Positions 1 through 36,070 of a stretch of 64,000 nucleotides of DNA are shown in pieces. The DNA comes from a virus. Taxonomy: Duplodnaviria > Caudoviricetes. The notes under the pieces were generated by a model. That model saw only the letters and a program-made list of their open reading frames with translations, did not search any database and was not told the DNA's origin. Numbering within the stretch: position 1 is the first letter of the stretch; every line of letters starts with the position of its first letter. The position numbers were made by a program, and so were the translations under genes. The stretch is taken from positions 1,927-65,926 of the IMG/VR virus record IMGVR_UViG_3300050821_010560, one strand, 5' to 3'.

Positions 1-643
1 TGACAGGGTCCTGGTAGGCCGTTTTACCCTTTCCTTCGGCCCCGACTTGCTCCAGCGTGGTAATGCGCGACGATAGCGCAGCAAACTGTTGTTGCTGTGC
101 GGCTGCCGCCGTCGCTGCTGTTGTCGCCACTAGTTGGCGCAGTGCCTCGGCGTTCGTGGTAGCTTGGTTTCTCAACACTTCGGCACTTTGGTTGACCTGA
201 TTGGCCAGTGCCGTTGCCTGGACATCTGATCGCTGGCTTGCGGTCGTCACTGCATTCACATCAACAGCACGAATGGCATCGATACGCTTGGCTTCCGCGA
301 TCGAGAGTTTCTCATTGTATTCAGCGCGTATCCTAGCCTCACCATCCAATCGCGCTGCTTGAGCTGCCGCCAAGACTTGCGCATGATCGTAACGTAATTG
401 GCTGATTTTTTCTTGTGCACTGATTTCTGTTTGCAGCAGCTTGTCGAGGGCATTGCGTAGGTCGTCCTGACGGCGGATTGCCGCTTCGACCAGATCGAGC
501 ACGTTTTTCGTCGGGTCGATGACAGGCTGCCCGCGCGCATCGACGACAATACCTGGACGCGATTCTTTTGTATCTTGTCCTACTGCCGTCTGGGCAGTTA
601 AGGTAATAAGCAGAACTAAAAATACGCTTGCCTTACGCAACAT
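1..643 (-). CDS. N-terminally anchored/secreted coiled-coil protein, spanin (Rz-like) candidate; runs off the left edge
   Basis: Hand-translated from ATG at 643: MLRKASVFLVLLITLTAQTAVGQDTKES...LVEAAIRRQDDLRNALDKLL...AEAKRIDAIRAVD; open to position 1; lies downstream of holin and endolysin candidates. Confidence 0.55.
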   Translation of the reverse strand, partial: MLRKASVFLVLLITLTAQTAVGQDTKESRPGIVVDARGQPVIDPTKNVLDLVEAAIRRQDDLRNALDKLLQTEISAQEKISQLRYDHAQVLAAAQAARLDGEARIRAEYNEKLSIAEAKRIDAIRAVDVNAVTTASQRSDVQATALANQVNQSAEVLRNQATTNAEALRQLVATTAATAAAAQQQQFAALSSRITTLEQVGAEGKGKTAYQDPV

Positions 644-648
644 GTAAC

Positions 649-1026
649 TCACTTTTTAGGTGCTACAAATCCGTTCGTCACTTTGACATTGGGAACGGCC
701 GCAGCCAGTTCCTTCGTCGTCGTGATGTTTTTCACTTCCGGCAAGGCCGCGGCAATCGCGAGCTTGTCCTGTGCCGGCAATGCTGCCGTTGCGGTGTTTA
801 TGTCATGCGCAGGCATGGCCGCGACACTGGCGACTTTGCCCTGGTTGGAATGCACCACGAAGGACCAGATGCCGCCGCCGATCGTGACGATGACGGTCAT
901 GATCTCGGGAAGGTTCGCCAGCAGGCCCGCGGCTTGTGCGGATGTCATCCACCCTCTCCCCGCCATATAGGCGAGGAGCGGGGGCAGCACGATCCGCAAG
1001 ATGCCGAATATCTGATCCTGGTTCAT
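649..1026 (-). CDS. putative holin / two-TM membrane protein
   Basis: Two hydrophobic segments (IFGILRIVLPPLLAYMAG; IMTVIVTIGGGIWSFVV); lysis-cassette position. Confidence 0.55.
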   Translation of the reverse strand: MNQDQIFGILRIVLPPLLAYMAGRGWMTSAQAAGLLANLPEIMTVIVTIGGGIWSFVVHSNQGKVASVAAMPAHDINTATAALPAQDKLAIAAALPEVKNITTTKELAAAVPNVKVTNGFVAPKK

Positions 1027-2639: not shown

Positions 2640-2861
2640 TCATTTTGGAAGTTCTTTCTGCTGCTCGGTTACCTGCTGGTTCAGCTTACCCAGCAAGGCG
2701 GCTACTTCCTCGTACGGCCGCTTGACGAGCGCCGTGCCGATCATCTGGATCTCCGCCATGGTGAGCTTGAGATCGTATTCCTTGACAGGGGGAGCCGGCG
2801 GCTGCTGAGCGAAAGTGGTTGAGGATAAGATTAGAAACATTCCAACGAGCAGTTTTTTCAA
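2640..2861 (-). CDS. small secreted protein, resembling small coiled-coil proteins that follow tail-fibre genes
   Basis: Signal peptide MKKLLVGMFLILSSTTFA|QQP; LKLTMAEIQMIGTALVKRPYEEVAALLGKL. Confidence 0.65.
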   Translation of the reverse strand: MKKLLVGMFLILSSTTFAQQPPAPPVKEYDLKLTMAEIQMIGTALVKRPYEEVAALLGKLNQQVTEQQKELPK

Positions 2862-2880
2862 GGCGTGCTCCTTTCGCGTG

Positions 2881-4578
2881 TCAGCACACAGTTAGCACAC
2901 CTGAATTATTCCACAAGCGTCCCGTACCGGTACATCCACCCGGTGCAGAGGTGGGTAAGTTGGGCATTAATACTTGAGAAACTGATCCCGCCGCCTGCTG
3001 CCCACCAGATAGAACAGTAGTCGCATTCGGATTAGTGCCGATCTGGTCGTTGAATGACATGAATCCGTAGAAGAACAAACCGTAACCCGATAGGACCAAC
3101 GAAATCCCGAACTGGTTGTTCATGCTCATCATGGTAACCGGCGATCCGGTGGCGCCGGTCGTGGCGTTGCCTTGCTCGCCGACGAGAATGGCATGGGTGT
3201 TACCCGTCGCATAAGTGGTGCCCTGTCCTAACCCCGTGCTGACGGAAGACACCGAGCCGGAACCAATGAGCGTGACGGAAGACCCGAGCTTGTAGAACCC
3301 ATCGGCAAGCTGGTTGATGTTTGCCACTCTCGATCCGATGACCGTGAACGGGGCAACGCCGCCTTTGAGATCAAGCTCGCGAAGATTCCCTTCGTTCTCG
3401 ATCTGCTCGATGATGATCGAGTCTGTCAAGTTTCCTTGGGCCAAAACTCCCGTGCCGCCAAACCCGCCGCCAAGGTGGCGGATGTCCGCGCTGCCGCCGA
3501 GAATGGCGACCTGTATGTCGCATCCGGTAATCTGATTATAGTATATCCGCGTATGTTTGGCATTCTGGCTGGCGCCTTGTCGAAGGCCGACACCGAAATT
3601 CGTTCCGGTCGTGATCTGAACATTTGATAGAGGGCTTGCGCCGATGTAGCCGACTATCCATGACGGCGCGGCGGCAAGAACGACGGTAGTCGAGTTCGTA
3701 AAGCTGGCGATCGTCGTATCCCAGAACAGGCCGCCTTGGCTACCGGGAAAACTCAGCCGTATTCTCTTGCCTGCATCCCCGGAAACGAAAGCCGCCGTGG
3801 CGCTCGTCAGGGTCGTGCTGCCGCTCGTCACGACTCCATCGATCGCCCGGTTGGTGCTGAGCTGCCCGCTGTCACAGGTGATCGTGTTGTCGTGGATATA
3901 GTAGTTTTCGTGGTTTGTTGTCGCGGTCCTGCTCCAATCGACGGCGACGAAGCTGGCATTACTTAGGCTGCTGTGAATGAAATCATTCCACCCAACTTCG
4001 GCCTGCGTACCGACGTGCGATCCTCCCGTCGTTCCATCGAACTTGAGAAAGGCATTGACCGAATGCACTCCATCGGTGACGAAGCGAAAACCGCGTATGG
4101 TCGGATGATCGCAATGCTCGAAATCGAACATCACCCCATTGTTGGCGCCGACCCATACGAACTGCGGAGCACCGCCGCTATCCTGCTGCCGTATGCCGGA
4201 AGTCAGGACAAGACCAACGCGATCGGTTACTGTGACAGTAGAACCAATATGCAGAGTGCAATCGGTGGGAAAAAACAGCGTCGAACTGTCAGGAATGGCA
4301 GCAATTGCCGTTTGCAAGGCACCTGCCGAATCCGTCGCTCCCGTACAGTCCACCCCGGTAAACCCAGTTGCGGTGTAGACATTCGGCGTCGAGACCAGCA
4401 TGTCGAGCATGGTCTGCCGCAGCTTGGTCGCCGTGCCCGCCGCACCCTGACCGGACGCCTGATTGGTGTTGATGTCTGTCGTTATTCCACTCGTCGTCTT
4501 CGACCCGCCGGTCTGAGCAGAAGCGGCGAGCGAGAACACAAGGATGAGCGCGGCGGCTCTAAACGTTGAAGTCAGCAC
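2881..4578 (-). CDS. signal-peptide-bearing tailspike-like beta-helix (pectate-lyase-like) protein
   Basis: Likely start GTG 4578 (MLTSTFRAAALILVFSLAASA|QTG); GVDCTGATDSAGALQTAIAA...TLFFP is the typical start of a beta-helix; C-terminal LPTSAPG..GRLWNNSGVL fibre motif. Confidence 0.7.
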   Translation of the reverse strand: MLTSTFRAAALILVFSLAASAQTGGSKTTSGITTDINTNQASGQGAAGTATKLRQTMLDMLVSTPNVYTATGFTGVDCTGATDSAGALQTAIAAIPDSSTLFFPTDCTLHIGSTVTVTDRVGLVLTSGIRQQDSGGAPQFVWVGANNGVMFDFEHCDHPTIRGFRFVTDGVHSVNAFLKFDGTTGGSHVGTQAEVGWNDFIHSSLSNASFVAVDWSRTATTNHENYYIHDNTITCDSGQLSTNRAIDGVVTSGSTTLTSATAAFVSGDAGKRIRLSFPGSQGGLFWDTTIASFTNSTTVVLAAAPSWIVGYIGASPLSNVQITTGTNFGVGLRQGASQNAKHTRIYYNQITGCDIQVAILGGSADIRHLGGGFGGTGVLAQGNLTDSIIIEQIENEGNLRELDLKGGVAPFTVIGSRVANINQLADGFYKLGSSVTLIGSGSVSSVSTGLGQGTTYATGNTHAILVGEQGNATTGATGSPVTMMSMNNQFGISLVLSGYGLFFYGFMSFNDQIGTNPNATTVLSGGQQAAGSVSQVLMPNLPTSAPGGCTGTGRLWNNSGVLTVC

Positions 4579-4666
4579 TGGCGAAGTCCGCAGGGTTGAA
4601 GTCGTGAGAGGAACTGGCCGATCCATGCCAGAATAACAGGACCAACGATAGAACAAAAAGGTTCAT
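4559..4666 (-). CDS. 35-aa secreted micro-protein with DF repeats
   Basis: Hand-translated MNLFVLSLVLLFWHGSASSSHDFNPADFASADFNV; ATGA-coupled to the upstream gene; absent from the ORF track. Confidence 0.55.
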   Translation of the reverse strand: MNLFVLSLVLLFWHGSASSSHDFNPADFASADFNV

Positions 4667-5580
4667 GGTGGCCCCCAGACCTGTACGGATTGGACCGCGA
4701 TGAACGGCCCGCCGAGGATTAGGATGTACGACATGGTGTCCGCGACGCTATAGACACCGGTAGGGCTCCCAGTCGAACAGGGTGCCGACGCGGAGGAGGT
4801 GTATGTCACATCCGCCGCAGTCTTGTGCACTCCATCAACCCAGCTCTCACGCCTACCTGTACCGGAGTTGAGACTCATCGGCACGATAGCTTTGGCGTAG
4901 GTATGCAGAGCAGTGTCGATCGCGCCGCTTATCACCTGGCACCCGGCGTTGAGTTGCGTGTTCGAAGCACCGGTCCATTGATGTAGGTTACTCAATGCCC
5001 CGGAGCTATCAACCACCTCCATGATGTCATCCTCAACCCAGGTAGTTATTCCTTGGTTGAGGTGCGGTAGCGGCATCATCCAGAATGAGGAGTGGGGATT
5101 GCCCTCGACAGCGGAGTTCAGCGACGCGACCATCTGAACGAAGAAGCCCTTGCTCGCATCGAACAGATATCCACAGTACGAGCCGTTGTAGGCAGCGCCA
5201 CTCGTACTCACGGCCGTTAGCAGGCTCAGGTTATCCGTATTCGTCGAGGCGAGGAGACCCATGCCGTTGGCATTGATCGACATATTGCCGGATGGTGTCG
5301 GCGAGTCTCCGCCCCCTCCGCCGAACCAAGTGAGGTTGGTAAACCAGGCATAGCCGGAACTACAGTTCTTTGTATTGTTCAGATCAACCTTGGTGAGATC
5401 AGTGAACTTGACATAGAAAAGGCACTTGCTGAAGCCCCAGTTCGTCGCACCGGTTGGCGCACTCGGAGCACCACTGGTGCAAAACTCGCTCCCATGCGTG
5501 AAGGGCTTGCTCGGCAGTACGCTTGCGCCGAGATATAGCAGGGCAAGGGATGCGAGAATGGCGAGCATTCTAAAGCTCAT
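4663..5580 (-). CDS. secreted beta-sandwich protein, GH16/ConA-like
   Basis: Signal peptide; HSSFWMMP...WVEDDIMEV resembles the GH16 E-x-D-x-x-E motif; HTY..W..DG. Confidence 0.6.
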   Translation of the reverse strand: MSFRMLAILASLALLYLGASVLPSKPFTHGSEFCTSGAPSAPTGATNWGFSKCLFYVKFTDLTKVDLNNTKNCSSGYAWFTNLTWFGGGGGDSPTPSGNMSINANGMGLLASTNTDNLSLLTAVSTSGAAYNGSYCGYLFDASKGFFVQMVASLNSAVEGNPHSSFWMMPLPHLNQGITTWVEDDIMEVVDSSGALSNLHQWTGASNTQLNAGCQVISGAIDTALHTYAKAIVPMSLNSGTGRRESWVDGVHKTAADVTYTSSASAPCSTGSPTGVYSVADTMSYILILGGPFIAVQSVQVWGPP

Positions 5581-6462
5581 CTAGCACGTACCCGACGAAA
5601 TGCCAGCAATCGTCGTCAGATATAGGTTCGTTTCGTGACAAAGGTTCGTCACATCGCCAGCGGTCAGATTTCCTCCGATCGTCGCGGACATGATCTGATA
5701 AGCACCGCCGTTGTCCGCAGTCGTACCGGTCGAATGCTGAAGCCCAAGTATGTAGACATTTCTACTCACTAGAGCTGAGGAAGTTGTATTCGGATTTTGG
5801 ATATTCGAGGCGTTCTTATAAAGTTGGTTGGTACTGCCCCCATTCCGATTGACAACGAAGTGACCAAGGCTATCAGCAACGGCTACTCCAGAAGCGTAGG
5901 CATTATTGACGTTACCTTGAGCATTGCCAGCTTGCCTGATAATAAGGGCGGTTGTAGAAGTAAAGGCGGGTTCATTATAGCCAATTACTGATCCCTGACT
6001 AGCTGCGGCATTTAAGTTTGTGTTGCTCCATACTGAAACATGCCCCGCATTCTGAGCAAAATTTCCCCCGGCCGTTGACGGGTTAAACCCGGTATCAAGA
6101 AAATCGGTTGTCGGGTTAGCCGCAGTTCCTAGATATCCCGCGTCTACGGTAAAACCCGGCGCACCATTCACAATTGCCGTGAAGCTACTCGAAACGATAT
6201 TGAGCAAAGCATTGCTGGAGCTGTTCGTCGCAAACAGGTAGGCAGCGTCCAGCTTGGCGAATACTCCCTGCACGTCAAGGTTACAAATCCACTGCCGGTA
6301 AGCTCCTCGATGCTTGACATCAACCGAGGTAGTGCGGTTCAAAAAGGTAGTGTATTTGGCGCAGTTCGAGCTGCCAACCATGAGAACCGGCAACTGCGCG
6401 TAGGCGCCATACCCCGCAACCAGGGAAAACCAAAGAACGCAAAAGGCAAATAACCGCTTCAC
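5581..6462 (-). CDS. secreted LamG/ConA-like protein
   Basis: True start GTG 6462 (MKRLFAFCVLWFSLVAGYGAYA|QLP); FLDTGFNPS, HVSVWSNT, QLYKNAS, ATIGGNLT motifs. Confidence 0.7.
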   Translation of the reverse strand: MKRLFAFCVLWFSLVAGYGAYAQLPVLMVGSSNCAKYTTFLNRTTSVDVKHRGAYRQWICNLDVQGVFAKLDAAYLFATNSSSNALLNIVSSSFTAIVNGAPGFTVDAGYLGTAANPTTDFLDTGFNPSTAGGNFAQNAGHVSVWSNTNLNAAASQGSVIGYNEPAFTSTTALIIRQAGNAQGNVNNAYASGVAVADSLGHFVVNRNGGSTNQLYKNASNIQNPNTTSSALVSRNVYILGLQHSTGTTADNGGAYQIMSATIGGNLTAGDVTNLCHETNLYLTTIAGISSGTC

Positions 6463-6663
6463 TAGAATCCCCAAAACGTATGCTGATTCGAGTTCATCGA
6501 ACTCTGCTGGCCCGTGCTGAAGCCTACACCCCAGATCCCCGCCTCGAACAGGTTGCCATTGAAACGGTTCGTGTTGTTCGCATTCGTGCACATGCGGATC
6601 GTACTCCCGATCGCATCGACTTCCAATTAACAGCCCCCAAATGACAAGGAGCTTATAGATCAT
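6462..6663 (-). pseudogene. internally deleted secreted LamG-like gene remnant
   Basis: Signal-like start MIYKLLVIWGLLIG joined out of frame to a C-terminus ...NRFNGNLFEAGIWGVGFSTGQQSSMNSNQHTFWGF* that ends TAG overlapping the next GTG. Confidence 0.55.
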
Positions 6664-8348
6664 TGCACCACCGTAACCGCGACACCACTTAGCTGTGCTG
6701 CTGTGCTGGTGATGAGGCAGAAGTCGTTGGCATTGACCGTTGAGGCTGCAATGGCCTTAGCTCCCGTGCCGCTCTCAAACCCTTGGTTAGCAGCAAGGTT
6801 GATCCCAGTCGCTGCCGTCGTGCCGCCGATCAGGCCAAGCGTTGAAGTCGCGCAGTTCGTCCCGGAGCCCTCGACGATGCCAACGTTATCCGCAGCGGCG
6901 GCGAACAGGAACAGGTGGCAGATATAAGTCTTCTTAGCTGATGTGCCTGTGACAATCTTGGTGTTCGCTGCAGAGGATATATTGATCGGCGTCCACACAT
7001 GCGCGTTCACGTCGCATGGATCGCCGACAAGGCCCGTTGTGTTGCCGCCGATGTTGACACCCTGATAGATCGCATTCGCGGGTACGGCGCTCGCCGTGGC
7101 ACCGGCACCTAAGCCGGCTACAGCTGAGTTGTCCGAAGCGATATTCATCCGCTGCGAACCGGTGCCGCTGACGCCGTTGTTCATCAGCGGCGTGACGCCA
7201 TTGAACTGAGACACGTTTACGGACTGGTTTGCCGGCAAGGCGACCGAGTCGGGCGTGACGAGCAGTTTAGTCATGCTCGCGATGCCCTGCACGGTCACGA
7301 CGTTAGTGCTGGCGGTTCCGGCCGTACCTGGGGCTGAGCCGGCGATAGTCGCGGTGTCCGTGCCGACCGCAACTCGTTGGGTGCCGGTACCGACCGCGCC
7401 GGTCCCGGTCAGGACCGTCACACCATTGACTTGCGCAACGTTGACCGATTGGTTGGTCGCCGTGTTGGCGACGATATTGGCGTTGATCGTCTTGGGATCA
7501 TAAGCGACCGGAACAGTGTGCCCGGTAACCGTGATGGTGCCGGCCGAGTAGGCGCTGATCCGCGCACGGATATTCTGGAAACCGGCTACCGGCATCTGCC
7601 AGATCGTAATACCGGAAGTCGTTGTGGTCGTTGCAAGGGTCGTTGTGCCTACCTGGACGGCAGTGACTGCCGTAAAATTAGTGTTATCCTCTGTGGCCTC
7701 AAAATTTACCGTCGTGCCGCCAGAGCAGGATGCGCAATTCACCGTCAAGATAGCCGACGACATCCCGTTGACGAGAAGAAGTGTGCCGTTACCGTTGGCT
7801 ACCGCGGCCGATTGCAACGTTCCGCTCACCGGAATCGATGCGACCTGACCAACATTGCCGATCGTCGCCGATCCAGCAGGGATAGACGAGCTGACCGCGT
7901 TGGCGACGAACTTGGTCAACGCCTCGAGCGAGCAAGTGCCGGTCGCGCTTCCGCAGACCGCATCGGCCTTAGCACCAAGCGTTACATTCGCGCCATCGGC
8001 TTCCGTCGCAGCGGCTTGCACGGCAAATGTGCCTGTGCCGACAACAGTGGCATTCAAGCTCGCTGCCGTCGCCTGGCTCACTGTCACCGTGCCGCTGATA
8101 GGCACAGCTTGCCCGCCTGAAATACCCTGGATGGTCAAAGCGCTCGTGCTCGGCGATCCCGCCGCGCCTGTCAGCGTCGTTCCCGTGGTATCCGTAGGAA
8201 CACTTAGCGGGCAGATCGTCGAGGAGCAGTTGAATGTCTTGAACGTCTGCGTGGCCCCCGCAGCATCCTTGGCCGTGATGGAAGTCTGACCAAGCGCAGG
8301 AGCGCAAGCAATGAATAGAAGGAGAGCGGCTAGAAGCTTTTTCATCAT
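6660..8348 (-). CDS. secreted Ser/Thr/Gly-rich fibre-like protein
   Basis: Signal peptide MMKKLLAALLLFIACAPALG|QTS; beta-repeats (NVAQVNG, NVSQFNG); paired Cys. Confidence 0.7.
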   Translation of the reverse strand: MMKKLLAALLLFIACAPALGQTSITAKDAAGATQTFKTFNCSSTICPLSVPTDTTGTTLTGAAGSPSTSALTIQGISGGQAVPISGTVTVSQATAASLNATVVGTGTFAVQAAATEADGANVTLGAKADAVCGSATGTCSLEALTKFVANAVSSSIPAGSATIGNVGQVASIPVSGTLQSAAVANGNGTLLLVNGMSSAILTVNCASCSGGTTVNFEATEDNTNFTAVTAVQVGTTTLATTTTTSGITIWQMPVAGFQNIRARISAYSAGTITVTGHTVPVAYDPKTINANIVANTATNQSVNVAQVNGVTVLTGTGAVGTGTQRVAVGTDTATIAGSAPGTAGTASTNVVTVQGIASMTKLLVTPDSVALPANQSVNVSQFNGVTPLMNNGVSGTGSQRMNIASDNSAVAGLGAGATASAVPANAIYQGVNIGGNTTGLVGDPCDVNAHVWTPINISSAANTKIVTGTSAKKTYICHLFLFAAAADNVGIVEGSGTNCATSTLGLIGGTTAATGINLAANQGFESGTGAKAIAASTVNANDFCLITSTAAQLSGVAVTVVQ

Positions 8349-8352
8349 GCCC

Positions 8353-8520
8353 TCAGTGCAGCAGTTCCATCATGACGGGGATGTTGCAACCGGTCGCGAC
8401 CGAGAAGTCGGTTGAGATGTTTCCACATGGTGTTAGGACTACAGTCGTTCCCCCCAATAGAGAACTCTGGGCACTTGCCTGGCTGGCGCAAAGAAGAAGG
8501 ATTATGATCCAGCGTGTCAT
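8353..8520 (-). CDS. 55-aa secreted protein with two mature-region Cys
   Basis: Hand-translated MTRWIIILLLCASQASA|QSSLLGGTTVVLTPCGNISTDFSVATGCNIPVMMELLH; ATGA-coupled. Confidence 0.6.
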   Translation of the reverse strand: MTRWIIILLLCASQASAQSSLLGGTTVVLTPCGNISTDFSVATGCNIPVMMELLH

Positions 8521-8786
8521 CCGACTATCCATGAGGTTCCATTGCAGTAAACGAGCGTATGGATTGCACCGCCACCGGTTACAGCGGAAAGAGCGACCGG
8601 CGTAAGTGCATCAGTCACGCCGTAGATCATGCCTTCAGCAGCGGCGTTACACGTGGGTAGAGAGCCAACGACCGAGGTAGGGACTTTACCCGACGTAGAC
8701 GTTGTTACCAATTCCGCATGCAGGAATAGAGGCGAAAGCCCAATAACTGTAGCTAGAAATATTCCAAGAGGCATTACCCATCTCAT
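8517..8786 (-). CDS. small secreted protein with a fibre-type module
   Basis: Start 8786 MRWVMPLGIFLATVIGLSPLFLHA|E; VGSLPTCNAAAEGMIYGVTD...VYCNGTSW. Confidence 0.65.
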   Translation of the reverse strand: MRWVMPLGIFLATVIGLSPLFLHAELVTTSTSGKVPTSVVGSLPTCNAAAEGMIYGVTDALTPVALSAVTGGGAIHTLVYCNGTSWIVG

Positions 8787-10609
8787 TGCACCTCTCCCGA
8801 TATAAATGCTGTTGCACTCGCGGTCTTCGTAAAGCACCCAGTCGTGGAGAAACTAACCGTTATGCCTGTAGCAAAATTCAGCGGCGGACCTGGTATCCAA
8901 CTCGCGCCTAGCGTACCGTTAGCAGCAAGCTGGTAGCATTTCTTCGGTGTCACGGCGCCGTCAGCAGGCGCCGACGTGGCATCAAATACCAGGACAAAAC
9001 CGGCAGATGCGCCCGAAGTCACCTGGAAAGAATAGAGGTTCCCCGCACCAGCTTTAAGCACCAGGTTCGCTGCGGCCGATCCAGTTACGACCGGCGCAAT
9101 GCCCATGCTGGCGGTAGCGGTTGGGCCTACACCAACACGAAGGTCACCAGCGAGATCGAGGGAGAGGAGGTTAGTCTGGGCAGTTGTGTAGGCAGGTGCG
9201 GCGCTCGTGACAGCGCCCATAATCGGAGAACCGATCTGGCCCGAGGTCGTCGAACCTTGCGCAACACCACCAGTGATCTTCAAATTCTTGTTCGTGTCAA
9301 CCTGAAGCTGATCCCAGGTCGTACCGTTGAAGCCGTAAGTATAAGCGACCGTTGGCGTATTGGTGCTCGACGTAGCCACGCCGGATGAGGCATTGCTCGT
9401 TGCGCCTGTTGAACCACCGGCCTTGATGTTGACCAGGAGGTTGCCGGCACTGTCGAGCTGGAACGGGCTGACGTTGCCCGACGTGATCGTCGTTGGGCTG
9501 GTGTTGAACTGCCCACCGATGAGTATCGAGTTGGCCGGACTCGCGGCATTCTGACCAGCAAAATCTAAAACCGCACCAACATTACCAACGATGCGCGCAG
9601 TCCAGTTACCGGACTGGCTGGCGGGCACCGCCGATTGGTTGGAAGCGATCACGACCGGCAGGCTGGCCGCCATCGCGGCCTGCCCGATGGCAATCGCCGA
9701 GCCACCGACTTGCGTAAGATTCTGCGTCCATGGACCCGACGCCTGCGTGACGGCGCCAATAGTATTGGCTCCGGTCGGCAGGGCGGTATTGACCGTCACG
9801 TTCCAAGTGCCGCTTTGCGCGGCCTGCACTACGAATGTGCCGGTACCCACCACGGTAGCATTCAAGCTCGCAGCGGTCGCCTGCGACACTTGCACGGGCG
9901 TCATCGACGCAATGCCCTGCACGGTCAGCACCCCGGTCGCGGCTGAACCGGCGGTGCCCGAGCCGGTCACGAGCCAGGGCGTCGTGTTGGCGGTATTGCC
10001 CGGCTGCACCGTCCAGATACCCGACTGTGTGACCGCTTGTGGGGAAGCGAAAGTAATGGCTGGAAGGGTGGTGACGGTACCGATATTCCAGGTGCCCGAC
10101 TGCGTTGCCGCGACGGTGCCCGTGACCGTCACGGTGCCGAACGAGTTAGCGGCTATATTGACGTTGAGATTCTTGGAGGCGTCTACCCGCAGCCGGTCGA
10201 ACGTCGTACCGTTGAAGCCGTAGAGCCAGGCTATCGTCTGCCCGTTGGTCGCACTCGTCGCCACCGCATCGGACGCATTGCTGGAAGTGCCTCCGGCGCA
10301 TCCGACCGCGCAATTTATCAGCAGATTGGAAGAATTGTCCGCTGCCAAATTAACCATATTGGCGCCGTTCTTGACGCCGATAGCCGTACCGGTACCGGGA
10401 AACGCTGCGCCGAAGGTTGACGACGTGCCGCCAGATCCGCCGCCTGCTACCACATTAACCGGCAGCGGCGTAGTGGAGGAACAAGGCGCCCACGGATTGA
10501 TGCCGGAACCGGTATTGCACCAGAGCGCAACCGCGGTCTGCGCATCAGCCGGTGAATAGCCTAAAAAGCAAACCAGGAGCAGCAATAGTGCAGCGAGTCT
10601 GTAGCGCAT
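8783..10609 (-). CDS. secreted Ser/Thr/Gly-rich fibre-like protein with internal repeats
   Basis: Signal peptide MRYRLAALLLLLVCFLGYSPADA|QTA; QSGxW repeats; duplicated YGFNGTT(F/W)D module. Confidence 0.7.
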   Translation of the reverse strand: MRYRLAALLLLLVCFLGYSPADAQTAVALWCNTGSGINPWAPCSSTTPLPVNVVAGGGSGGTSSTFGAAFPGTGTAIGVKNGANMVNLAADNSSNLLINCAVGCAGGTSSNASDAVATSATNGQTIAWLYGFNGTTFDRLRVDASKNLNVNIAANSFGTVTVTGTVAATQSGTWNIGTVTTLPAITFASPQAVTQSGIWTVQPGNTANTTPWLVTGSGTAGSAATGVLTVQGIASMTPVQVSQATAASLNATVVGTGTFVVQAAQSGTWNVTVNTALPTGANTIGAVTQASGPWTQNLTQVGGSAIAIGQAAMAASLPVVIASNQSAVPASQSGNWTARIVGNVGAVLDFAGQNAASPANSILIGGQFNTSPTTITSGNVSPFQLDSAGNLLVNIKAGGSTGATSNASSGVATSSTNTPTVAYTYGFNGTTWDQLQVDTNKNLKITGGVAQGSTTSGQIGSPIMGAVTSAAPAYTTAQTNLLSLDLAGDLRVGVGPTATASMGIAPVVTGSAAANLVLKAGAGNLYSFQVTSGASAGFVLVFDATSAPADGAVTPKKCYQLAANGTLGASWIPGPPLNFATGITVSFSTTGCFTKTASATAFISGEVQ

Positions 10610-10618
10610 TGGTGCATC

Positions 10619-12994
10619 CTAGTTGTTAGCTATCAGCTCAACGGACATGCTGCCCCGCGTCGTGTTGGCGGTTGCCGACGACACGAAACGGAAGGCGATC
10701 AGCGCTCCCGCGGGGATGTTCGTCGGCCCGCCCTGGAAGCTGCATGTCGTAGCCGAGCCCGTGATCGTGCAGGCGGCTCCGGAAGCCGAGCCGTTCACCA
10801 GCAAAGTGGTAATGAAGGTCTGCACCCCTCCCGGCGAAGCCGTAGTGCTCACCTGAAGGTCGGCAGCCGTCATGCTGGTAGGGATGTAGGTGGCACAATT
10901 GGCTGCAGCACTTGTGTCGACGCAGCCGGTACCGACGAACGTCGTCGTATTCTGTGCCAGCGTCGCCGTGGAAACTCCTTGGTAGATAACGCCGTTCTTA
11001 ATAGACTGTAGCGACCCGCTTCCCGCCGAGTTCCAGGTGTTGGACCCTAAGATATAGCTCGACTGCGTGGTCGACACGCCATTGAGTGTCGAGGCGTTGG
11101 CCAGCAGAAAAGCATTGGTCGGTGTGACCGGCTGGCTCTCGGTCTCGAATGTCGTATTGAGCCAGGAGACGTTGGTGCTGGCCCCCAAAAACTGCACATA
11201 CTCAACACAACCGCCGGAAATTACCCCGCCATACCAGCCGATATTGTTAACCGTGTCGAGCATCACGCAATCGTTGTTCGCGCTTGCTCCCGCGAACTTG
11301 TGCATCTCGGTATTGAAAAAATGGATGTCGGATGTCGACTTGGTGCCGCTAGTCACCGTAGCAAAGGAGGAAGACAGCGTAGCCTGGTTGGTGCCGGTAA
11401 GCCGGATTACGTCCTGGGTACCGGCGCCAGGGAAGTAGTTGTAGAAATCACTACCGACGACACGCCAAGACGGCACACCGTAATCGTAAAGCGCCGCCAC
11501 GCTGTACTGTCCGGTGACATAGACCTCATCAATCATGAACCGGGTCGATACGCCAGACGCCACCTGAGCAATGAATATACCGGTGGTCGGTTGCGCCAGT
11601 GTCTGGAACGATCCTATCTGGAAACGGCTCAGCGTAACAAAAGACGAACCCGTTAAATCAAAGACATGCCAGGTCGCTGTATTAAGCGCGGCAGTGCCAG
11701 CCCACTCGTAGAGCACCGATTCGTTAATTCCATCGCCGTAATACGTAAGATGATTGGCACCGGTCGCATTGATCTTCTGGACCATGCAGGAACCGGTAGG
11801 ATGGTAGACCGGCCGACCGGACGATACGCCGGCCGCAATGGCGTTATTGATCGCGGTGGTATCGTCGGTACCGTACTCGACTATCTTGCCGGAAACCGAT
11901 CCTCCGGAGCTATTAGCAGCCCCTAAGACGACGTGCGTCGTGTCGGTAAAGCTCGTAATCGTGGTTGCCAGCACTACACCGGCCGCACCGGCTCCGGCAA
12001 CTTGAATCTCTTTTCCAACATCAGCTGCTGAAAAGTTCGCACTCGCGCTTGACAGCGTGAAGGAACCAGAACTCATGGCTCCATCAGATAGGATTGTGTA
12101 GTTGCACAAAGCCCCGTACTGCGGATCACGGATGTTCACAACCGGAGCAACTGTCGTGAACGTACAGTCTTCGCGCAAAAACCGCGTCGTCGAAGCGGTC
12201 GCCCCAGGATCGGGTACGAGGCCCTTGGCGTGACTTGCACCGGAAGCAACGCACGGATTTAAAAATGCCGTTACTGCAGCAGCCGTGGCAGCTATTCCAC
12301 CGTCGATGACATTTCCGCTTGCATCAAACTTGGACAGATTCCCGCTGGGCAGCGATCCGCTCGTGGTGGCAAAAACCGTTGTGTTCCCCGATCGGGTGCC
12401 GGATGACGGCGTGACGCCGGCTCCCCCGCCGATCACCGGGTTGTTGGCGGTGAGCACGCCGGAGGAAGTGAGGGCACCGGTCGCGGTATAGCCGGGGATA
12501 CCCCCCGATGTGCCGGCGCCGAGCGATACACCCGCATCACTCATCCCGCCCGATCCGTTAGTCTTCACGAGGTCGTTGTTCGTGAACGGGCCGGTGATGG
12601 TAGCGAATGTGGTGCCAGGTGAGCTGGGGAAAGATATCACCGTTCCGTTGATGACAATGTTGAGCCCTTGCGGTGCGGCACCACCGAAATTCTGCAAGCT
12701 GATCTGCGCATTGGCAGCCGTTGAGGCGGCAAGACAGAGCTGATTGTAGGCACCCGTAATTGCAGCGCTGTTCACGCAGATGCCGGGACCGCCGTTGTTA
12801 GTCACACCGAAACTGGTAGCTACGCCAGATGCCGCCGACCCACCGTCACCGATCACACCGGGAGCGAGCCAGACAGGGACGTGGCCGATCGTGACGAAAC
12901 CTGACTGCTGAACTGATTGACCATAGACAACCGTTATGGACGCCAAAAAAATTAGAAGGGGGGCAACGAGGTTTTTCAGCAGACGGTTTTTCAT
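10619..12994 (-). CDS. signal-peptide-bearing tailspike (pectate-lyase-like beta-helix)
   Basis: Start ATG 12994 (MKNRLLKNLVAPLLIFLASITVVYG|QSV); GLVPDPG..TRFLREDCTF fibre motif; VVNIRDPQYGA...DDTTAINNAIAA...VYHPTG start of beta-helix. Confidence 0.75.
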   Translation of the reverse strand: MKNRLLKNLVAPLLIFLASITVVYGQSVQQSGFVTIGHVPVWLAPGVIGDGGSAASGVATSFGVTNNGGPGICVNSAAITGAYNQLCLAASTAANAQISLQNFGGAAPQGLNIVINGTVISFPSSPGTTFATITGPFTNNDLVKTNGSGGMSDAGVSLGAGTSGGIPGYTATGALTSSGVLTANNPVIGGGAGVTPSSGTRSGNTTVFATTSGSLPSGNLSKFDASGNVIDGGIAATAAAVTAFLNPCVASGASHAKGLVPDPGATASTTRFLREDCTFTTVAPVVNIRDPQYGALCNYTILSDGAMSSGSFTLSSASANFSAADVGKEIQVAGAGAAGVVLATTITSFTDTTHVVLGAANSSGGSVSGKIVEYGTDDTTAINNAIAAGVSSGRPVYHPTGSCMVQKINATGANHLTYYGDGINESVLYEWAGTAALNTATWHVFDLTGSSFVTLSRFQIGSFQTLAQPTTGIFIAQVASGVSTRFMIDEVYVTGQYSVAALYDYGVPSWRVVGSDFYNYFPGAGTQDVIRLTGTNQATLSSSFATVTSGTKSTSDIHFFNTEMHKFAGASANNDCVMLDTVNNIGWYGGVISGGCVEYVQFLGASTNVSWLNTTFETESQPVTPTNAFLLANASTLNGVSTTQSSYILGSNTWNSAGSGSLQSIKNGVIYQGVSTATLAQNTTTFVGTGCVDTSAAANCATYIPTSMTAADLQVSTTASPGGVQTFITTLLVNGSASGAACTITGSATTCSFQGGPTNIPAGALIAFRFVSSATANTTRGSMSVELIANN

Positions 12995-13296
12995 GTCCGC
13001 CGCACAATCACGTTCACGCCCGCCACGAAGATCGCGTACATGCCAAGCCCGATGAGCTGCAGCACGTTCGGATCGGGCGTGGAGTGCCAGAGCCAAAAGA
13101 CCGAGGCGACGGTGGCAAGGCCGAACAGGTCGGCAAGCGCGATCAAAGCGCGCTTAGACAGCGCGGCTAAGCTGAGAAGAAGAATCTTGGTGGCGTGGCT
13201 ATGATCCGTAGGAGGAGCGGACTGGTCCGCCGGAGCCTCTTGCGAAGGCGGATCGGCGACCAGGGTGAATCTTGCCTGCGTCGGGCTCTCTGCCAT
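12991..13296 (-). CDS. two-TM inner-membrane protein
   Basis: Start 13296; LIALADLFGLATVASVFWLW and LQLIGLGMYAIFVAGVNVIV. Confidence 0.6.
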   Translation of the reverse strand: MAESPTQARFTLVADPPSQEAPADQSAPPTDHSHATKILLLSLAALSKRALIALADLFGLATVASVFWLWHSTPDPNVLQLIGLGMYAIFVAGVNVIVRRT

Positions 13297-13519
13297 CCTG
13301 CGCTTCCGGTTGCTGCAGGGTCTTGCGGAACGCGGCGAACGTATCGCCCTCGTCCGCCGGAGGCGCATCACCCTTGGTCTTAGCCAGGATCGCATAGTAG
13401 GCGGCGACCGCCTTGAAGGCGTCGAGCCTTTCGTGGAAAGGAAGGGGTTTTTCAGGAGTTTCGAGGCATTCCGTTATAAGTTTTTCCGCGAACCGGTCGA
13501 TATCGGCCTTGAGACTCAT
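13199..13519 (-). CDS. hypothetical protein
   Basis: Start 13519 MSLKADIDRFAEKL, coupled to the upstream stop. Confidence 0.55.
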   Translation of the reverse strand: MSLKADIDRFAEKLITECLETPEKPLPFHERLDAFKAVAAYYAILAKTKGDAPPADEGDTFAAFRKTLQQPEAQDGREPDAGKIHPGRRSAFARGSGGPVRSSYGS

Positions 13520-16500
13520 TGCACCGGCTCCAGTTCCTGCCCTTGATTCTGCTGCTGGTGCACGGCTTGTGACATTCCCGACCCACGTGCTCCGCCGCGA
13601 CGCATGGCTTCTCGAATCATTTCGCGCGCAGCTTCTTTCGCCTCCGGATCGCGGCTTTCCAACGCACGTTCGAGGAAGCGTAACGTTACAGGGCTCGTTA
13701 CCAGCTTGCGCATGGTCGCAAAATACTCTCCCAGCATCGACCGCGCCAGGAAATTGGCGCCAGGCAGCATCTTGACTGGTCCCGCGATTTTGCCGAGCCC
13801 GGTGATCACGCCCCACGGATGCTCGACCGTGGTTCTTGCCAACATGCCCGACGCGGTTCCCTCCTGCAACGATTTAGATGCTGTCCCTTGCAGCAAGGCC
13901 ATCTCTTTAGCGAGGCGCTGTGCAGTTTCCAGTTTTACACCGGGAAACATCAACTGCTGCACTTCCGGCGACACCTTGGCAAGGCGCTCACCGGGCGTGA
14001 GCGTGCCCTGAAGGATACGCTGTGCCCATATCTGACGCATCAAATTAAATTCTGCCGACTGCTCCCCTCCTTCGAATGCCTTGGACGCGGCAATGATCAA
14101 ATCCTCGTTGCCGAGAATGCGATCTACGGCTTCGGTCGCGAGCGTCGTCGGATCATAGAGGAAATGCAGCGGATCGGCCTTCTTCTCAGCCGTAAGCCGT
14201 TTCATCTCGATCTTGAGCGCTCCCAAAGGTTCACGTTTAGCCGCGGCCTTAAGTGCTTCCGCCGTCTGGTGTGCCTTGCCGATGATATCGCGCACCGTAT
14301 CGCCTTCCTTCGGCGTGATTTCCAGCCGTCCGCCCAACATCTCGATGCGGCGGGCCTGCTCGCGCAGCTCGCCCGCACCTTTGCTACCGTGCACGACCTC
14401 GAGCATGTTGTGCTGATCACGCTTGAGCACTTCCTTGGCAAATTTCTGTCCGTCTACCACGCCGGGCGTGAGCGTCTTGCTCAGGTCCAGCATTTCCTGC
14501 ACGTCGGATGCACGAATACCGGCCCACACGTTGGGACCAACGATGCTCTCGATCTTGCGCGCTACTTCCGTGCGACCATCCTTGAGAATTAGGTTGTTCA
14601 GCACCTTGGGATCGGCCGGCATGCCGGCGCGCAGCCCGTTTACCACGCCCTGTATCTGCGTATCGTTCAACGGACCCATGTTCTCGGCGTAGAATTTATC
14701 CGCTTCGCGCAAGGCGCGTGACGCTTCCTTGAGTTCCGGCACCGCGTGGGCATCGTGCAGGATCTGGTCTACTTTGCCGGCGAAAAACTTGTAAGTGCCG
14801 TTCCACTGGTCGGAAGTGAGATCGGACCAGTTGACGTTGCCGCGAAACTGGGAGCGCAGATTATGCAATTGCCCCCAGGTGGGCTCTACGGGCGGTTTTT
14901 CCCACTCGCCGGGAACAGGATTACCTTCCAGGTCGGTCTTCGGCTTACCCGCGAGATCGCGCAGCTTGCGCACGATATCGGGGTGCTTGGTTTGAAAGTC
15001 GCCCGGCAGATCCTCGATAAATTTTTCCGCTATCTGCGACAGCCCGGCGGCATCAGGCTTGATGTCGCCCGCCAGATGCTGCGCATTGTCGTACATGATG
15101 CGGGCACGCCCCTGGATACCCTCCCTAAAAGCCTTGATCTCCTCCCCGACCGTCCACCACAGGTCACCGCTGTTGTGTCCAGCTTTAGTCGCCTTCATGG
15201 CGGCATCGATATTGCCGCGGATATGGTCGAAACCCTGGTCGATCAAGCCTTGAGCAGCCTTGCGGGCGTCATCCGCATCCTTTCGCAACTGCTCGACGCG
15301 GATAGACTTCTCCGCTTGAGTCGAGGTTTTCATTCCCTCAAGCGTAGCGTTGAGCCTGGCATCCGCCTCAACCGATTTTTGCTGTGCCTTGGCAAGAATG
15401 GTTCGCCCGGCTTCCTCGGTACTGACCGCCGCGGTCGGTTTCTGGATCGACCCCTCGGTTTTTACCCCCATATCCTCGAGCAACTGCCCGGCTTCCCGCT
15501 CGTAGTGGCGTTGCGCCGACTGGTAGAGCGGTTTTTGGGTGTGCAAGGCAGGTTCCCGCACTTCCGTACTGATATGGATGTGCGGGGCTTCCTTGAAGAT
15601 GGCAGATGGAGGCGTTGCCGTACCAGGCTCGGTAATGCCAAGCTGTCCGAGGAAGCCATGCCCCGGCGTTTCGCCCTCTGTTGCCATCCGGGAAGCCATC
15701 TTGAGTGCTTCCGGGTCGGTACCGAGCACGTAATTTATCGCCTTGCCCGACCCGCGCGCCATCTGGCGGCCGGCTTCCTTGGCGACCGGCACGGCTGCCG
15801 AGATCATGCGGCCGGCACCCTCGCCGACCGCGCCGACCGCGCCGGATACGGCTAAATTCTTCGCCTCCTCAAGCGCCGTGCGATCATAGATGCCAGCCAG
15901 CTGTAGAACGATATCATTGATCGCCTGCCCCCCTGCTCCACCTATTCCTGCCCCGACAACGCCTCCGGCTACGGCGCCCGTGATATTGCCGGGGCCGGGT
16001 ACGGCGGTTCCTGCCGCGAAGCCTGCACCTCCACCGACCATCCCGCCAAGAACGGAACCGGTGATGGGGGCGGCCATGCCGGTAATCGCGCCGGGGATCG
16101 CAGTTGCCCCACGGCCGGGCTTGCGGCGCACACCGCCTTCCTCCTCGACGTAGAACTCACCCGATCCCTCCTCCTGCTTCACCTTGCCGGGGTAGGACCG
16201 CTCGAGCGCCTTGCGCCGCTCGGCATCGGTGAGCGACATGTCGTATAAAGTCTGCGCGGTGTAATCGATCCCTTCGAATTTCGGCTTCATCCGCCGCTCG
16301 CCGTTGGGATCGATGAAATGCTCCCCCTCCGGCACGACGGCGTAGTCAGCATCGGTGCTGACATACCAGGGTTTTTTGCGCGACTTGCCTTCCGGGTCCA
16401 GGAAATGCGATCCCGGCCGCAGCGCCTGATAACCGGCATCATCGGTGACCGTTGCCGGATGAAGCTCGGTACCGGGAGGACCGTAGTAACCATGTTTGCG

Positions 16501-16611
16501 CTGCGGCGTAATTCCGCGGGCCTGTAATGTCTCCTGCTCTTGCGGCGTGGGATTTGCAGGCGGAGAAACAGGGGTATCCTGCATCAGACCGACGACCTCG
16601 TCACTGGACAA
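13516..16611 (-). CDS. large internal virion / DNA ejection protein
   Basis: 1031 aa, alpha-helical, Gly-rich hydrophobic stretch; third of three ejection-type genes. Confidence 0.65.
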   Translation of the reverse strand: MSSDEVVGLMQDTPVSPPANPTPQEQETLQARGITPQRKHGYYGPPGTELHPATVTDDAGYQALRPGSHFLDPEGKSRKKPWYVSTDADYAVVPEGEHFIDPNGERRMKPKFEGIDYTAQTLYDMSLTDAERRKALERSYPGKVKQEEGSGEFYVEEEGGVRRKPGRGATAIPGAITGMAAPITGSVLGGMVGGGAGFAAGTAVPGPGNITGAVAGGVVGAGIGGAGGQAINDIVLQLAGIYDRTALEEAKNLAVSGAVGAVGEGAGRMISAAVPVAKEAGRQMARGSGKAINYVLGTDPEALKMASRMATEGETPGHGFLGQLGITEPGTATPPSAIFKEAPHIHISTEVREPALHTQKPLYQSAQRHYEREAGQLLEDMGVKTEGSIQKPTAAVSTEEAGRTILAKAQQKSVEADARLNATLEGMKTSTQAEKSIRVEQLRKDADDARKAAQGLIDQGFDHIRGNIDAAMKATKAGHNSGDLWWTVGEEIKAFREGIQGRARIMYDNAQHLAGDIKPDAAGLSQIAEKFIEDLPGDFQTKHPDIVRKLRDLAGKPKTDLEGNPVPGEWEKPPVEPTWGQLHNLRSQFRGNVNWSDLTSDQWNGTYKFFAGKVDQILHDAHAVPELKEASRALREADKFYAENMGPLNDTQIQGVVNGLRAGMPADPKVLNNLILKDGRTEVARKIESIVGPNVWAGIRASDVQEMLDLSKTLTPGVVDGQKFAKEVLKRDQHNMLEVVHGSKGAGELREQARRIEMLGGRLEITPKEGDTVRDIIGKAHQTAEALKAAAKREPLGALKIEMKRLTAEKKADPLHFLYDPTTLATEAVDRILGNEDLIIAASKAFEGGEQSAEFNLMRQIWAQRILQGTLTPGERLAKVSPEVQQLMFPGVKLETAQRLAKEMALLQGTASKSLQEGTASGMLARTTVEHPWGVITGLGKIAGPVKMLPGANFLARSMLGEYFATMRKLVTSPVTLRFLERALESRDPEAKEAAREMIREAMRRGGARGSGMSQAVHQQQNQGQELEPVQ

Positions 16612-20305: not shown

Positions 20306-20643
20306 CCTATCTCCAGTAGGTTCGCTGCCTGAAAGTGCTCGTTGGCGTTACCTTGTATCCAACCGCCAAGCTGCGTGGGGTCTTTCCAGTCAACCGTGGT
20401 CAAATCATACCCCTTTATCCCCAGAATTGCATCTATAGTGTTGTGCATGGTCTGATGCTGGTATAGCCACAACTCCATGTCGGCTGGACTGAACGGGTCG
20501 AGGACATAGGACGGCACTGTGATACCCGTTGCCTTGAGGATAGCAGCATTGATCTCGACGTGGTGCACCGCATGGTTGAAGCTCCATTGCGCCAACTGGT
20601 CCGGATTGGCCGGAACATTGAAGATTCCGGCGATCCCGCTCAC
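20302..20643 (-). CDS. conserved hypothetical virion protein
   Basis: His-rich W..NH..HH / WL..HQ.MH pattern; translationally coupled. Confidence 0.55.
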   Translation of the reverse strand: MSGIAGIFNVPANPDQLAQWSFNHAVHHVEINAAILKATGITVPSYVLDPFSPADMELWLYQHQTMHNTIDAILGIKGYDLTTVDWKDPTQLGGWIQGNANEHFQAANLLEIG

Positions 20644-35736: not shown

Positions 35737-36070
35737 GGCACTCGCACTCGCACGTCGCGTCACAAAACTTGCACCGTTTCCGGCACCTCTCGTGCTGCCC
35801 GTGATAGCAAGCCGTTGACAGATAGCTGTGCTTCGCATCAACGATCTTCTGCTGTGCCTCCCGAATCTTCTTAAAATCCTCGTCGTCCCGCTGCTGGATA
35901 GCCTGCAACCCCTTATCGGTAATAAAATAGTTGACGGCATCGGCCCGTCGCAGCAGACCTTTGGCCGCAAGATCAAGCGTCGGCTTCTCCCATCGACCAA
36001 TCGGGATCATCGACTGCCCTTCCTTGGCGATCAGGAGAACGGTCACCTCATCTTGCGACAATTCGCTCAT
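35720..36070 (-). CDS. hypothetical protein with Cys-rich C-terminus
   Basis: ACYHGQHERCRKRCKFCDATCECECH. Confidence 0.5.
   Translation of the reverse strand: MSELSQDEVTVLLIAKEGQSMIPIGRWEKPTLDLAAKGLLRRADAVNYFITDKGLQAIQQRDDEDFKKIREAQQKIVDAKHSYLSTACYHGQHERCRKRCKFCDATCECECHVVRP

Follow-up and report, generated by a model that had tools for sequence, protein, structure and literature searches.

Predicted Sec leaders throughout a tail spike and fibre module of an uncultured, apparently short-tailed phage

Are the receptor-binding proteins of a tailed phage always added to its virions in the cytoplasm? To our knowledge, tailed-phage virions are taken to assemble entirely in that compartment. The question is raised by a 64,000-nucleotide stretch of the Caudoviricetes record IMGVR_UViG_3300050821_010560, the whole of which we call the window. 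At positions 2640-12994 it holds a spike and fibre module of nine consecutive minus-strand genes (A to I) with leaders of the type used for export by the general secretory (Sec) pathway, and one small leaderless open reading frame (ORF). The first-pass annotation of this module had offered two alternatives: proteins that are exported and then added to the virion, or tail-derived proteins repurposed as a secreted set. The export that both share gained strong, though indirect, support (leaders, AxA cut sites and even cysteine counts). Between the two we lean only slightly towards the first, in which a complete 65.9-kb phage, short-tailed and P22-like, encodes its receptor-binding module here; the proteins, Sec-exported and disulfide-bonded, would be added to particles still lacking spikes once the holin has opened the inner membrane. 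More generally, we consider evenly poised the proposal that a large, uncultured clade of short-tailed phages completes its virions outside the cytoplasm, with a receptor-binding layer that would be exported by Sec, cut before glutamine, folded oxidatively in the periplasm into trimers with disulfide bonds, and docked on DNA-filled particles without spikes after the holin has been triggered but before the outer membrane breaks, when the two compartments have merged.

We searched for leaders with a rule set of our own. To pass, a sequence needed an n-region of net positive charge, then 8-18 uncharged hydrophobic residues in a row (mean Kyte-Doolittle value 1.7 or higher), small residues at -3/-1 and a predicted cut at 14-40; any in-frame start in the first 110 codons was accepted. 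All nine module genes passed (9/9), against 3/70 of the other called genes and 10/304 non-gene ORFs of at least 55 amino acids (aa) (Fisher p = 1e-9), and the pattern is expected by chance in 3.3% of ORFs. The three passes outside the module were a 222-aa gene at 1295-1963, a 276-aa gene starting at 652 and an ORF of 87 aa at 26740-27003 that is itself dubious. All 19 confident core virion genes at 13.5-34.5 kb failed the test (0/19 passed), in agreement with the earlier statement that these genes lack leaders. The clustering of leaders in the module is real and highly non-random. In each of the nine genes, an n-region with a net charge of at least +1 precedes an uncharged hydrophobic core of 8-18 residues, and a site with small residues at -3/-1 follows, although the site of G is uncertain. 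Glutamine occupies +1 in 7/9 module genes and in 8/11 of the predicted leaders of the genome (A, B, D, E, F, H, I and the 276-aa gene), far more often than expected from the 4% glutamine content of these leader-bearing proteins (binomial p = 1e-9). The first-pass annotation had described a basic and hydrophobic leader at the start of about 11 consecutive ORFs. ORF reading, start checks and the rule-based test bore this out for A to I, and the count was corrected to nine leader-bearing genes and one leaderless ORF of 54 aa.

The leader of gene A is conserved well beyond the window. A HMMER search with the first 160 residues of A against 1.84 billion cluster representatives returned 922 representatives at E ≤ 1e-3 and 540 at E ≤ 1e-10, nearly all of which aligned from their own first residues. 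Among the best 150 of the 922, 147 passed the leader test, with glutamine at +1 in 127/147; the three failures were one hydrophobic N-terminus missed by the rule and two leaderless sequences. Across 78 aligned homologues, the leader had a median length of 19 aa and a composition of 25% L, 20% A, 9.2% K+R and 0.4% D+E. The cut site was similarly uniform: -1 was A or G in 72/77, -3 was A or V in 71/77, and the first mature residue was a nearly invariant glutamine. Related loci taken from viral, genome and metagenome collections (numbered here with the prefix L) yielded 55 distinct N-termini, of which 51 passed, two were cut by the contig end and possessed a hydrophobic run, and two were small leaderless variants. 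The leader is retained in 53/55 of these loci, with glutamine at +1 in 47/51 locus leaders; by this rule-based count, homologues in related phages do keep their signal peptides. The pattern of the A family has the appearance of a textbook signal-peptidase-I substrate selected for cutting at one exact position. Because the leader and the exact cut position are conserved across relatives, a start-codon artefact as the source of the leaders is excluded.

Two of the related loci also encode a small, leaderless and cysteine-free protein of about 155 aa (L065:804-1274 and L066:2030-2503). Its first ~30 residues carry the mature N-terminal motif of the exported fibre and the two proteins have nothing else in common; in L066 the leader-bearing fibre gene directly follows it. 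We found no protein of this type in the window. It may be a cytoplasmic user of the same docking site.

Proteins that fold in an oxidising compartment tend toward paired cysteines. The mature module proteins contain 49 cysteines in 3171 residues (1.55%), against 37 in 6476 (0.57%) for the 19 core virion proteins; no cysteine at all occurs in the three largest internal proteins. From A to I the mature proteins have 12, 6, 2, 2, 10, 4, 6, 7 and 0 cysteines, many of them in close pairs, and the count is even in seven of the eight proteins that contain any. Gene B has 1742 homologues at E ≤ 0.001, and we analysed the best 120 of these, from which the near-identical copy of the window's own gene was dropped (leaving 119) and 11 ambiguous sequences were set aside. 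The leader-bearing forms (n = 81) had a median cysteine content of 1.24%, with 78 even counts, 3 odd and none without cysteine, whereas the leaderless forms (n = 27) had a median of 0.20%, with 13 even, 9 odd and 5 without cysteine. The two forms differed in cysteine content with a Mann-Whitney p of 4e-13, which overstates independence if leader-bearing and leaderless forms make up clades; this possible clade structure counts against our reading and leaves the parity counts unaffected (binomial 4e-20 for the leader-bearing forms and 0.26 for the leaderless ones). In the A family, mature proteins longer than 300 aa comprised 123 with even and 8 with odd cysteine counts, and the leaderless member P0116 lacks both of the conserved cysteines of the N-terminal domain. 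When ORFs of 100 aa or more were counted roughly across 57 non-redundant loci, those with a leader comprised 47 even, 11 odd and 8 without cysteine, and the leaderless ones 64 even, 51 odd and 59 without. The cysteine signature would constitute evidence for export that is independent of the leader test. Export of the module proteins to an oxidising compartment appears very likely because the leaders are canonical and conserved, the sites are of the AxA type and the even cysteine counts are confined to leader-bearing forms.

We then asked what kind of proteins these are. In 30 records of cultured phages, genes annotated as tail fibres match the C-terminal parts of P0116. Across the A family, the N-terminal domain is conserved (40-60% identity) and the C-terminal parts are unrelated or swapped. 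A conserved N-terminus with a variable C-terminus is the usual design of a fibre that docks on a conserved tail. Structure prediction supported the proposal that the N-terminal domain of A trimerises: three copies of the mature residues 1-160 of A were modelled as a homotrimer with a score of 0.91, against 0.00 for the best of three controls. In the calibration of this score, the 0.91 mark was reached by 20/30 one-chain-pair proteins and by 1/23 single-chain proteins, although the present model differs from the calibration in using its own alignment and three copies. The runs of the trimer model had at least 96% of contacts in common, the partner chains had a predicted local distance difference test (pLDDT) value of at least 87, and the chains were intertwined. 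The modelled interface includes the first mature residues and the residues that flank both conserved cysteines.

The module lies between the genes for ejection proteins and the holin. The window corresponds to bases 1927-65926 of a single 65,926-base contig, which is most probably a complete phage genome because its first 50 bases recur, as a terminal repeat, 73 bases before the contig end. The minus strand holds nearly all genes from 1 to 53 kb. The marker of a short-tailed phage is a 711-aa P22 gp10-like tail hub (21325..23460, minus strand) identified in the ESM Atlas. Against Atlas clusters named 'P22 Gp10' it obtained a feature score of 0.99, with 238/256 features shared, and template modelling (TM) scores of 0.66/0.70 over 501 residues; a PF11134 cluster scored 0.96. 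The large terminase (TerL, 32574-34505) has 35% identity to those of uncultured spring-water phages. The series of internal or ejection-type proteins ends with a 1031-aa gene (13516..16611, minus strand) that precedes the module, and a holin gene of the lysis block lies downstream (649..1026, minus strand; PF23987 Phage_holin_10, 31.7 bits for a cut-off of 27, E = 1.6e-07). The earlier placement of the module at a podovirus spike position, after ejection genes and before lysis, is consistent with these results, mainly with the gp10-like hub and also with the downstream holin.

This arrangement recurs in relatives. L001 and L002 present the order hub, 226-, 113-, 153-, 357- and 541-aa genes, 1031-aa gene, two-transmembrane gene and leader-bearing fibre, and homologues of the 1031-aa protein with 41-47% identity immediately precede the leader-bearing fibre gene in L001, L002, L006 and L011. 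In L008 the leader-bearing fibre directly follows the homologue of a 244-aa tail-region gene, with a stop/start overlap. In the window, the two-transmembrane gene encodes a 134-aa protein with two C-terminal hydrophobic segments (12991..13395, minus strand), directly upstream of A and coupled to it by an ATGA overlap. Its homologues occur in 7 distinct related contigs and adjoin the fibre gene wherever the ORFs of the locus were read; no family match was found for it. Its role may lie inside the virion, or at the membrane as a factor that helps to export or assemble fibres. Within the module we counted 7 promoter-like sites (6.8 expected) and 11 terminator-like sites (15.6 expected), that is, no excess of either, and the module is not marked as a separate transcription unit.

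Scans of most other ORFs of the window, with several small ORFs left unscanned, revealed no further spike- or fibre-like gene; the remaining scanned ORFs yielded replication, recombination, anti-defence and sugar-modifying genes. Searches of 50,697 phage records revealed no cultured relative, a point against a virion role: there was no match for A (E ≤ 1e-5), for its N-terminal domain (E ≤ 1) or for B (E ≤ 1e-3). In addition, blastp of B to I against the first 13 related loci found no homologues. Synteny and modular architecture favour virion proteins over a secreted set, and it is likely from such comparisons that the module proteins belong to the virion.

The following scheme, for which we infer export, cleavage, disulfides, docking and the time of docking and in which the trimer is a model, would account for a module of this kind. 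Late in infection, the module proteins would cross the inner membrane unfolded through Sec and their leader would be removed, mostly directly ahead of a glutamine that may cyclise. The mature chains would then fold, gain disulfides and trimerise in the periplasm, while DNA-filled spike-less particles, closed by hub and plug, would build up in the cytoplasm. The two pools would stay apart until the inner membrane is opened by the holin, or until lysis. At that point A would dock on the tail hub through its N-terminal domain, and the smaller proteins, along with B, E and H, would attach to A or beside it. Meanwhile, the exported spikes might destroy or mask the receptors of the dying cell from within. 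The pay-offs would be disulfide-stabilised spikes, no early enzyme activity in the cytoplasm and the removal or masking of receptors on the dying cell. A late and separate docking step is physically plausible because P22 acquires its tailspike after all other parts, P22 particles made without spikes can be completed in vitro and holin lesions are large.

Several points weigh against this reading. Cleavage, export and presence in the particle are all predictions from sequence, and the leader calls come from our rule set and not from SignalP. The model of the N-terminal domain of A did not match any known docking domain: the best E value was 0.45 in a Foldseek search of the PDB and 0.022, at a TM score of 0.19, in the BFVD, and VIA-align gave a best Z of 3.0. 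The monomer model of an intertwined trimer may be unsuited to a fold search. The short-tail reading leans mainly on one Atlas result; a direct Pfam scan of the hub gave no match at E ≤ 0.05, and the weak match of the 1031-aa protein (phrog_167, 1.1e-05) is to a tape-measure family. The metagenome-assembled genome (MAG) bins that contain related contigs disagree (Hyphomicrobium, Acetobacteraceae, Planctomycetales and a delta-proteobacterium), and we infer the periplasm itself from lipobox proteins in relatives and from the holin. Finally, free Sec-exported beta-helix polysaccharide lyases are common in bacteria, and export fits a non-virion enzyme equally.

The last of these points leads to the rival explanation that survives best, which we regard as unlikely and still as one to be taken seriously: an exported non-virion set of proteins, derived from tail fibres, that would act in the periplasm or after release as depolymerases, as adhesins or by masking receptors. 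Such a set might strip or block the receptors or capsule of the infected cell itself, with superinfection exclusion, easier release or less loss of progeny on debris as the result, and the host would be recognised by something else, for instance the 226-aa protein described below or proteins with immunoglobulin-like domains. All of the export evidence fits this explanation equally well. It gains from the pectin-lyase-type matches in A and H and from a conserved E.D..E motif in G, which we take to resemble a motif of glycoside hydrolases (GH16). It gains likewise from the 226-aa protein, which is leaderless, adjoins the hub and combines a kept N-terminus with a variable C-terminus. There are also precedents for leader-bearing genes with non-structural roles in tail regions: a passage of PMC12309495 presents lambda Lom as a leader-bearing moron among tail genes, and part of PMC10367356 describes five leader-bearing genes in Porphyromonas gingivalis phages, of unknown function and cut before glutamine. 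However, it is not obvious why a free enzyme should need a strongly conserved N-terminal domain, predicted to be trimeric, with swapped C-terminal parts, the hallmark of virion-docked fibres. The tight coupling to virion genes and the conserved synteny, including the L008 gene directly among tail-region genes, also argue against a free set, as do the lack of a separate promoter or terminator signal and the absence of a spike-like receptor-binding protein among the ORFs scanned elsewhere. Moreover, ~10 kb, or 15% of the genome, would be devoted to accessory functions.

Alternatively, the leaders could be uncleaved signal anchors that tether the fibres at the outer face of the inner membrane until depolarisation or breakage frees them or lets particles pick them up, in the manner of signal-anchor-release endolysins. 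G does not have a clear AxA site, the n-region of H is long if its start is the ATG at 4626, a conserved two-transmembrane protein is coupled to A, and the cysteine signature fits any periplasmic exposure. Nevertheless, the bias to small residues at -1 and -3 and the nearly invariant glutamine at +1 in the A family indicate selection for cutting exactly there, leaderless relatives start at the same position, and the first mature residues lie in the modelled trimer interface, all of which makes tethering quite improbable in our view. Lastly, that the proteins are not exported, and fold and join virions in the cytoplasm with segments that serve another purpose or stem from wrong starts, agrees with the textbook assembly route of tailed phages, with the GTG starts of F and H and the TTG start of I, and with the rule-based nature of the leader calls, but it is very hard to reconcile with independent public gene calls that start with the same type of leader in 147/150 family-A representatives, with canonical leader composition and AxA sites, with even cysteine counts (78/81 and 123/131) against random parity in leaderless homologues, and with the low chance rate of the pattern per ORF.

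Returning to the exported receptor-binding module that we prefer, we considered whether the glutamine after the cut points to a host. Shine-Dalgarno motifs were found ahead of 27/61 genes, against a background of 9%, and G+C content was 53-61% across 2-kb windows; presumably, both argue against a Bacteroidota host for this phage. A rule by which glutamine (later pyroglutamate) follows the signal peptidase I cut is stated as Bacteroidetes-specific in a passage of PMC5837995. The present leaders resemble that rule in their glutamine at +1 (8/11 in the genome, 127/147 in family A and 47/51 in the locus leaders), whereas this phage differs in its Shine-Dalgarno sites and its G+C content. We rejected the rule as a host marker owing to the Shine-Dalgarno use. 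The glutamine is probably not a host marker and may matter for the fibre itself. As for the relatives, L002 and L005 are contigs of ~58-60 kb that carry the same phage structural module and sit in unrelated MAG bins (Hyphomicrobium and delta-proteobacterium). They look like whole phage genomes swept into bins, for which bin taxonomy would be no host guide.

All genes of the module are on the minus strand, and their starts were checked by coding potential and junction sequence. The suspicion that over-long ORF calls hide some of the true starts was confirmed for A, C, F and H. Gene A (10619..12994, 791 aa) has a 25-aa leader, MKNRLLKNLVAPLLIFLASITVVYG, cut before Q. Its conserved, predicted trimeric N-terminal domain (QSVQQSG.VT.GH.P.W..GVIGDGG), with two near-invariant cysteines, is followed by a pectin-lyase-like beta-helix, for which residues 292-456 match phrog_32881 'pectin lyase' at 2.7e-20. 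These features designate A as the predicted anchor tailspike or fibre of the module. Gene B (8783..10609, 608 aa) has a 23-aa leader, MRYRLAALLLLLVCFLGYSPADA, cut before Q, and then a short cysteine loop and fibre-shaft repeats; a repeat segment that it has in common with E shows 65% identity over 49 aa. Gene C (8517..8786, 89 aa) follows by an ATGA overlap, as at the junction of the 134-aa gene and A, and possesses a 24-aa leader ending LSPLFLHA before E, two mature cysteines and a weak phrog_3003 match (E = 0.01). Gene D (8353..8532, 59 aa) has a 21-aa leader ending CASQASA before Q and two mature cysteines, with a weakly positive coding potential.

Gene E (6660..8348, 562 aa) has a 20-aa leader, MMKKLLAALLLFIACAPALG, cut before Q, and a fibre-like mature part with 10 cysteines. 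Its nearest Atlas clusters are viral hypothetical proteins (score 0.93), and the same type of leader and mature N-terminus was found in homologues such as P0195 and P0225. We rejected E as a lipoprotein, which a cysteine in the leader might suggest, as E-like homologues lack that cysteine. The first-pass description of fibre-like repeat proteins is supported for both B and E. Between E and F lies the small leaderless ORF (6462..6626, 54 aa), whose stop overlaps the GTG start of F (TAGTG). In 6475-6663 the coding potential was 0.26 to 0.53 for the frame of the small ORF against -0.23 for the long F frame. A start of F at 6663, as in the long ORF, was rejected by this measure, since the 185 bases upstream code in another frame. 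Gene F thus delimited (5581..6462, 293 aa) has a 22-aa leader, KRLFAFCVLWFSLVAGYGAYA, cut before Q, 4 cysteines and a match to phrog_18498 of unknown function (2e-09).

Gene G (4663..5580, 305 aa) adjoins F at a TAGATG junction and has a hydrophobic leader, MSFRMLAILASLALLYLGA, followed by S with an uncertain cut site, 6 cysteines and the E.D..E motif. Beyond a near-identical copy, G has only two homologues, both with a diverged hydrophobic leader, and the motif is kept in 3/3 sequences. An AlphaFold model of G built from these 3 sequences had a pLDDT of 36.8 and was unusable. The LamG/GH16-like label given to F and G was not confirmed, with no Pfam family at E ≤ 0.1. Gene H (2881..4578, 565 aa from the GTG at 4578, or 581 aa from an alternative ATG at 4626) has a leader that contains AAALILVFSLAASA, ends in ASA and is cut before Q. 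It appears to be the second beta-helix spike, with a phrog_32881 match of 6.7e-06 and 50% identity to A over 60 aa. The idea of two beta-helix spikes in the module is supported by the matches of A and H to the same family. Gene I (2640..2861, 73 aa) starts at a TTG with AGGAG upstream and has an 18-aa leader, MKKLLVGMFLILSSTTFA, cut before Q; its mature part is small, helical-looking and devoid of cysteine. Pfam returned nothing above cut-offs for the module proteins and two sub-threshold matches, both for I.

Two further minus-strand genes with leaders lie just downstream of the module, in the lysis region. The 222-aa protein (1295-1963) is beta-rich and has 8 homologues only, all unnamed and metagenomic. 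The 276-aa protein, the last part of which is at window positions 2-652, has a coiled-coil look, an N-terminal leader or anchor and a C-terminal membrane segment. Upstream, the 226-aa leaderless protein (20640-21320, minus strand) adjoins the hub in the position of a needle. In L001, L002, L005 and L012 its N-terminal ~128 residues are kept and its C-terminal part is variable; it looks beta-rich and not coiled-coil, has no PDB match, and fits a tail needle, a plug or a short leaderless fibre. Sequence searches of the PDB with the 711-aa, 202-aa and 226-aa proteins gave nothing useful, the 202-aa gene (2024-2632) had no Pfam match above cut-offs, most core genes were without a PHROG or Pfam match, and the window contains no tRNA genes.

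Compared with P22 (gp9 tailspike, gp10 hub and gp26 needle), this genome presents a gp10-like hub, the order of hub, small proteins, large internal proteins and spikes, and beta-helix spikes with a separate N-terminal domain. In contrast, gp9 is leaderless and joins in the cytoplasm, whereas here nine module proteins have leaders and paired cysteines, the N-terminal domain of A lacks detectable likeness to known head-binding domains, and the 226-aa protein at the needle position is not coiled-coil-like. CBA120, G7C and SP6/K1-5 possess branched multi-spike systems with several spikes or fibres encoded side by side. The module resembles them in this respect, and one conserved anchor could similarly carry the others, but their proteins are leaderless and those of the module are leader-bearing. 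Secreted bacterial pectate and polysaccharide lyases are Sec-exported, disulfide-stabilised beta-helix proteins that act as monomeric free enzymes; unlike the module, they have no conserved trimeric N-terminal domain and no synteny with virion genes. Besides Lom, Bor and T5 Llp are leader-bearing accessory genes in tail regions. These three place Sec leaders on phage genes among tail or fibre genes, as here, but they are single small membrane proteins or lipoproteins (morons), whereas the module comprises nine coupled genes of up to 791 aa with fibre and spike architecture.

Leader-bearing virion proteins are established in filamentous phages, whose coat proteins (Ff pIII and pVIII) have Sec-type leaders according to part of PMC4823517. 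These phages assemble outside the cytoplasm, as is proposed here for the last step, but they belong to another virus realm, are extruded without lysis and have no icosahedral head or terminase, and here only the receptor-binding layer would be exported. Secretory and signal-anchor-release endolysins use the host Sec system and await the holin in the periplasm, as sections of PMC8951688 and PMC3556154 describe; they too are late phage proteins, but they are lysis enzymes and not virion parts. In open-access papers and bioRxiv we came across no account of tailed phages whose tail fibres or spikes are exported by Sec.

If the preferred reading is true, these phages would be a widespread exception to the all-cytoplasmic assembly of tailed-phage virions. 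The module would reveal a route to disulfide-stabilised phage fibres, link the timing of lysis to infectivity and provide a built-in neutralising of receptors on the producing cell. With families of this size (922 and more than 1742) and no counterpart of either in 50,697 phage records, the biology appears to be common in the environment and unstudied. Finders of receptor-binding proteins and the engineering of host range should keep leader-bearing candidates. Given the leaders and the conserved mature N-terminus, mass spectrometry of viral fractions could test the idea directly.

Finally, we noted several other genes in the window. A sugar-modification island occupies 35.7-43.5 kb on the minus strand (36048-36881, 36878-38326, 38707-39426, 39661-40668 and 42384-43472). 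It encodes an FkbM-type methyltransferase, a TPR protein, a small serine recombinase (resolvase domain, 1.3e-29), an NAD-dependent epimerase/dehydratase (2.8e-38) and a protein with a weak STELLO glycosyltransferase-like match, below cut-off. This island could alter host surface glycans or glycosylate phage proteins. Among 52 scanned ORFs we found anti-defence-type domains (Tad2-like, 7.3e-25, and Acb2/Tad1 hairpin, 8.2e-17) and a KTSC domain, and a DnaJ-domain protein is encoded at 44656-45324.

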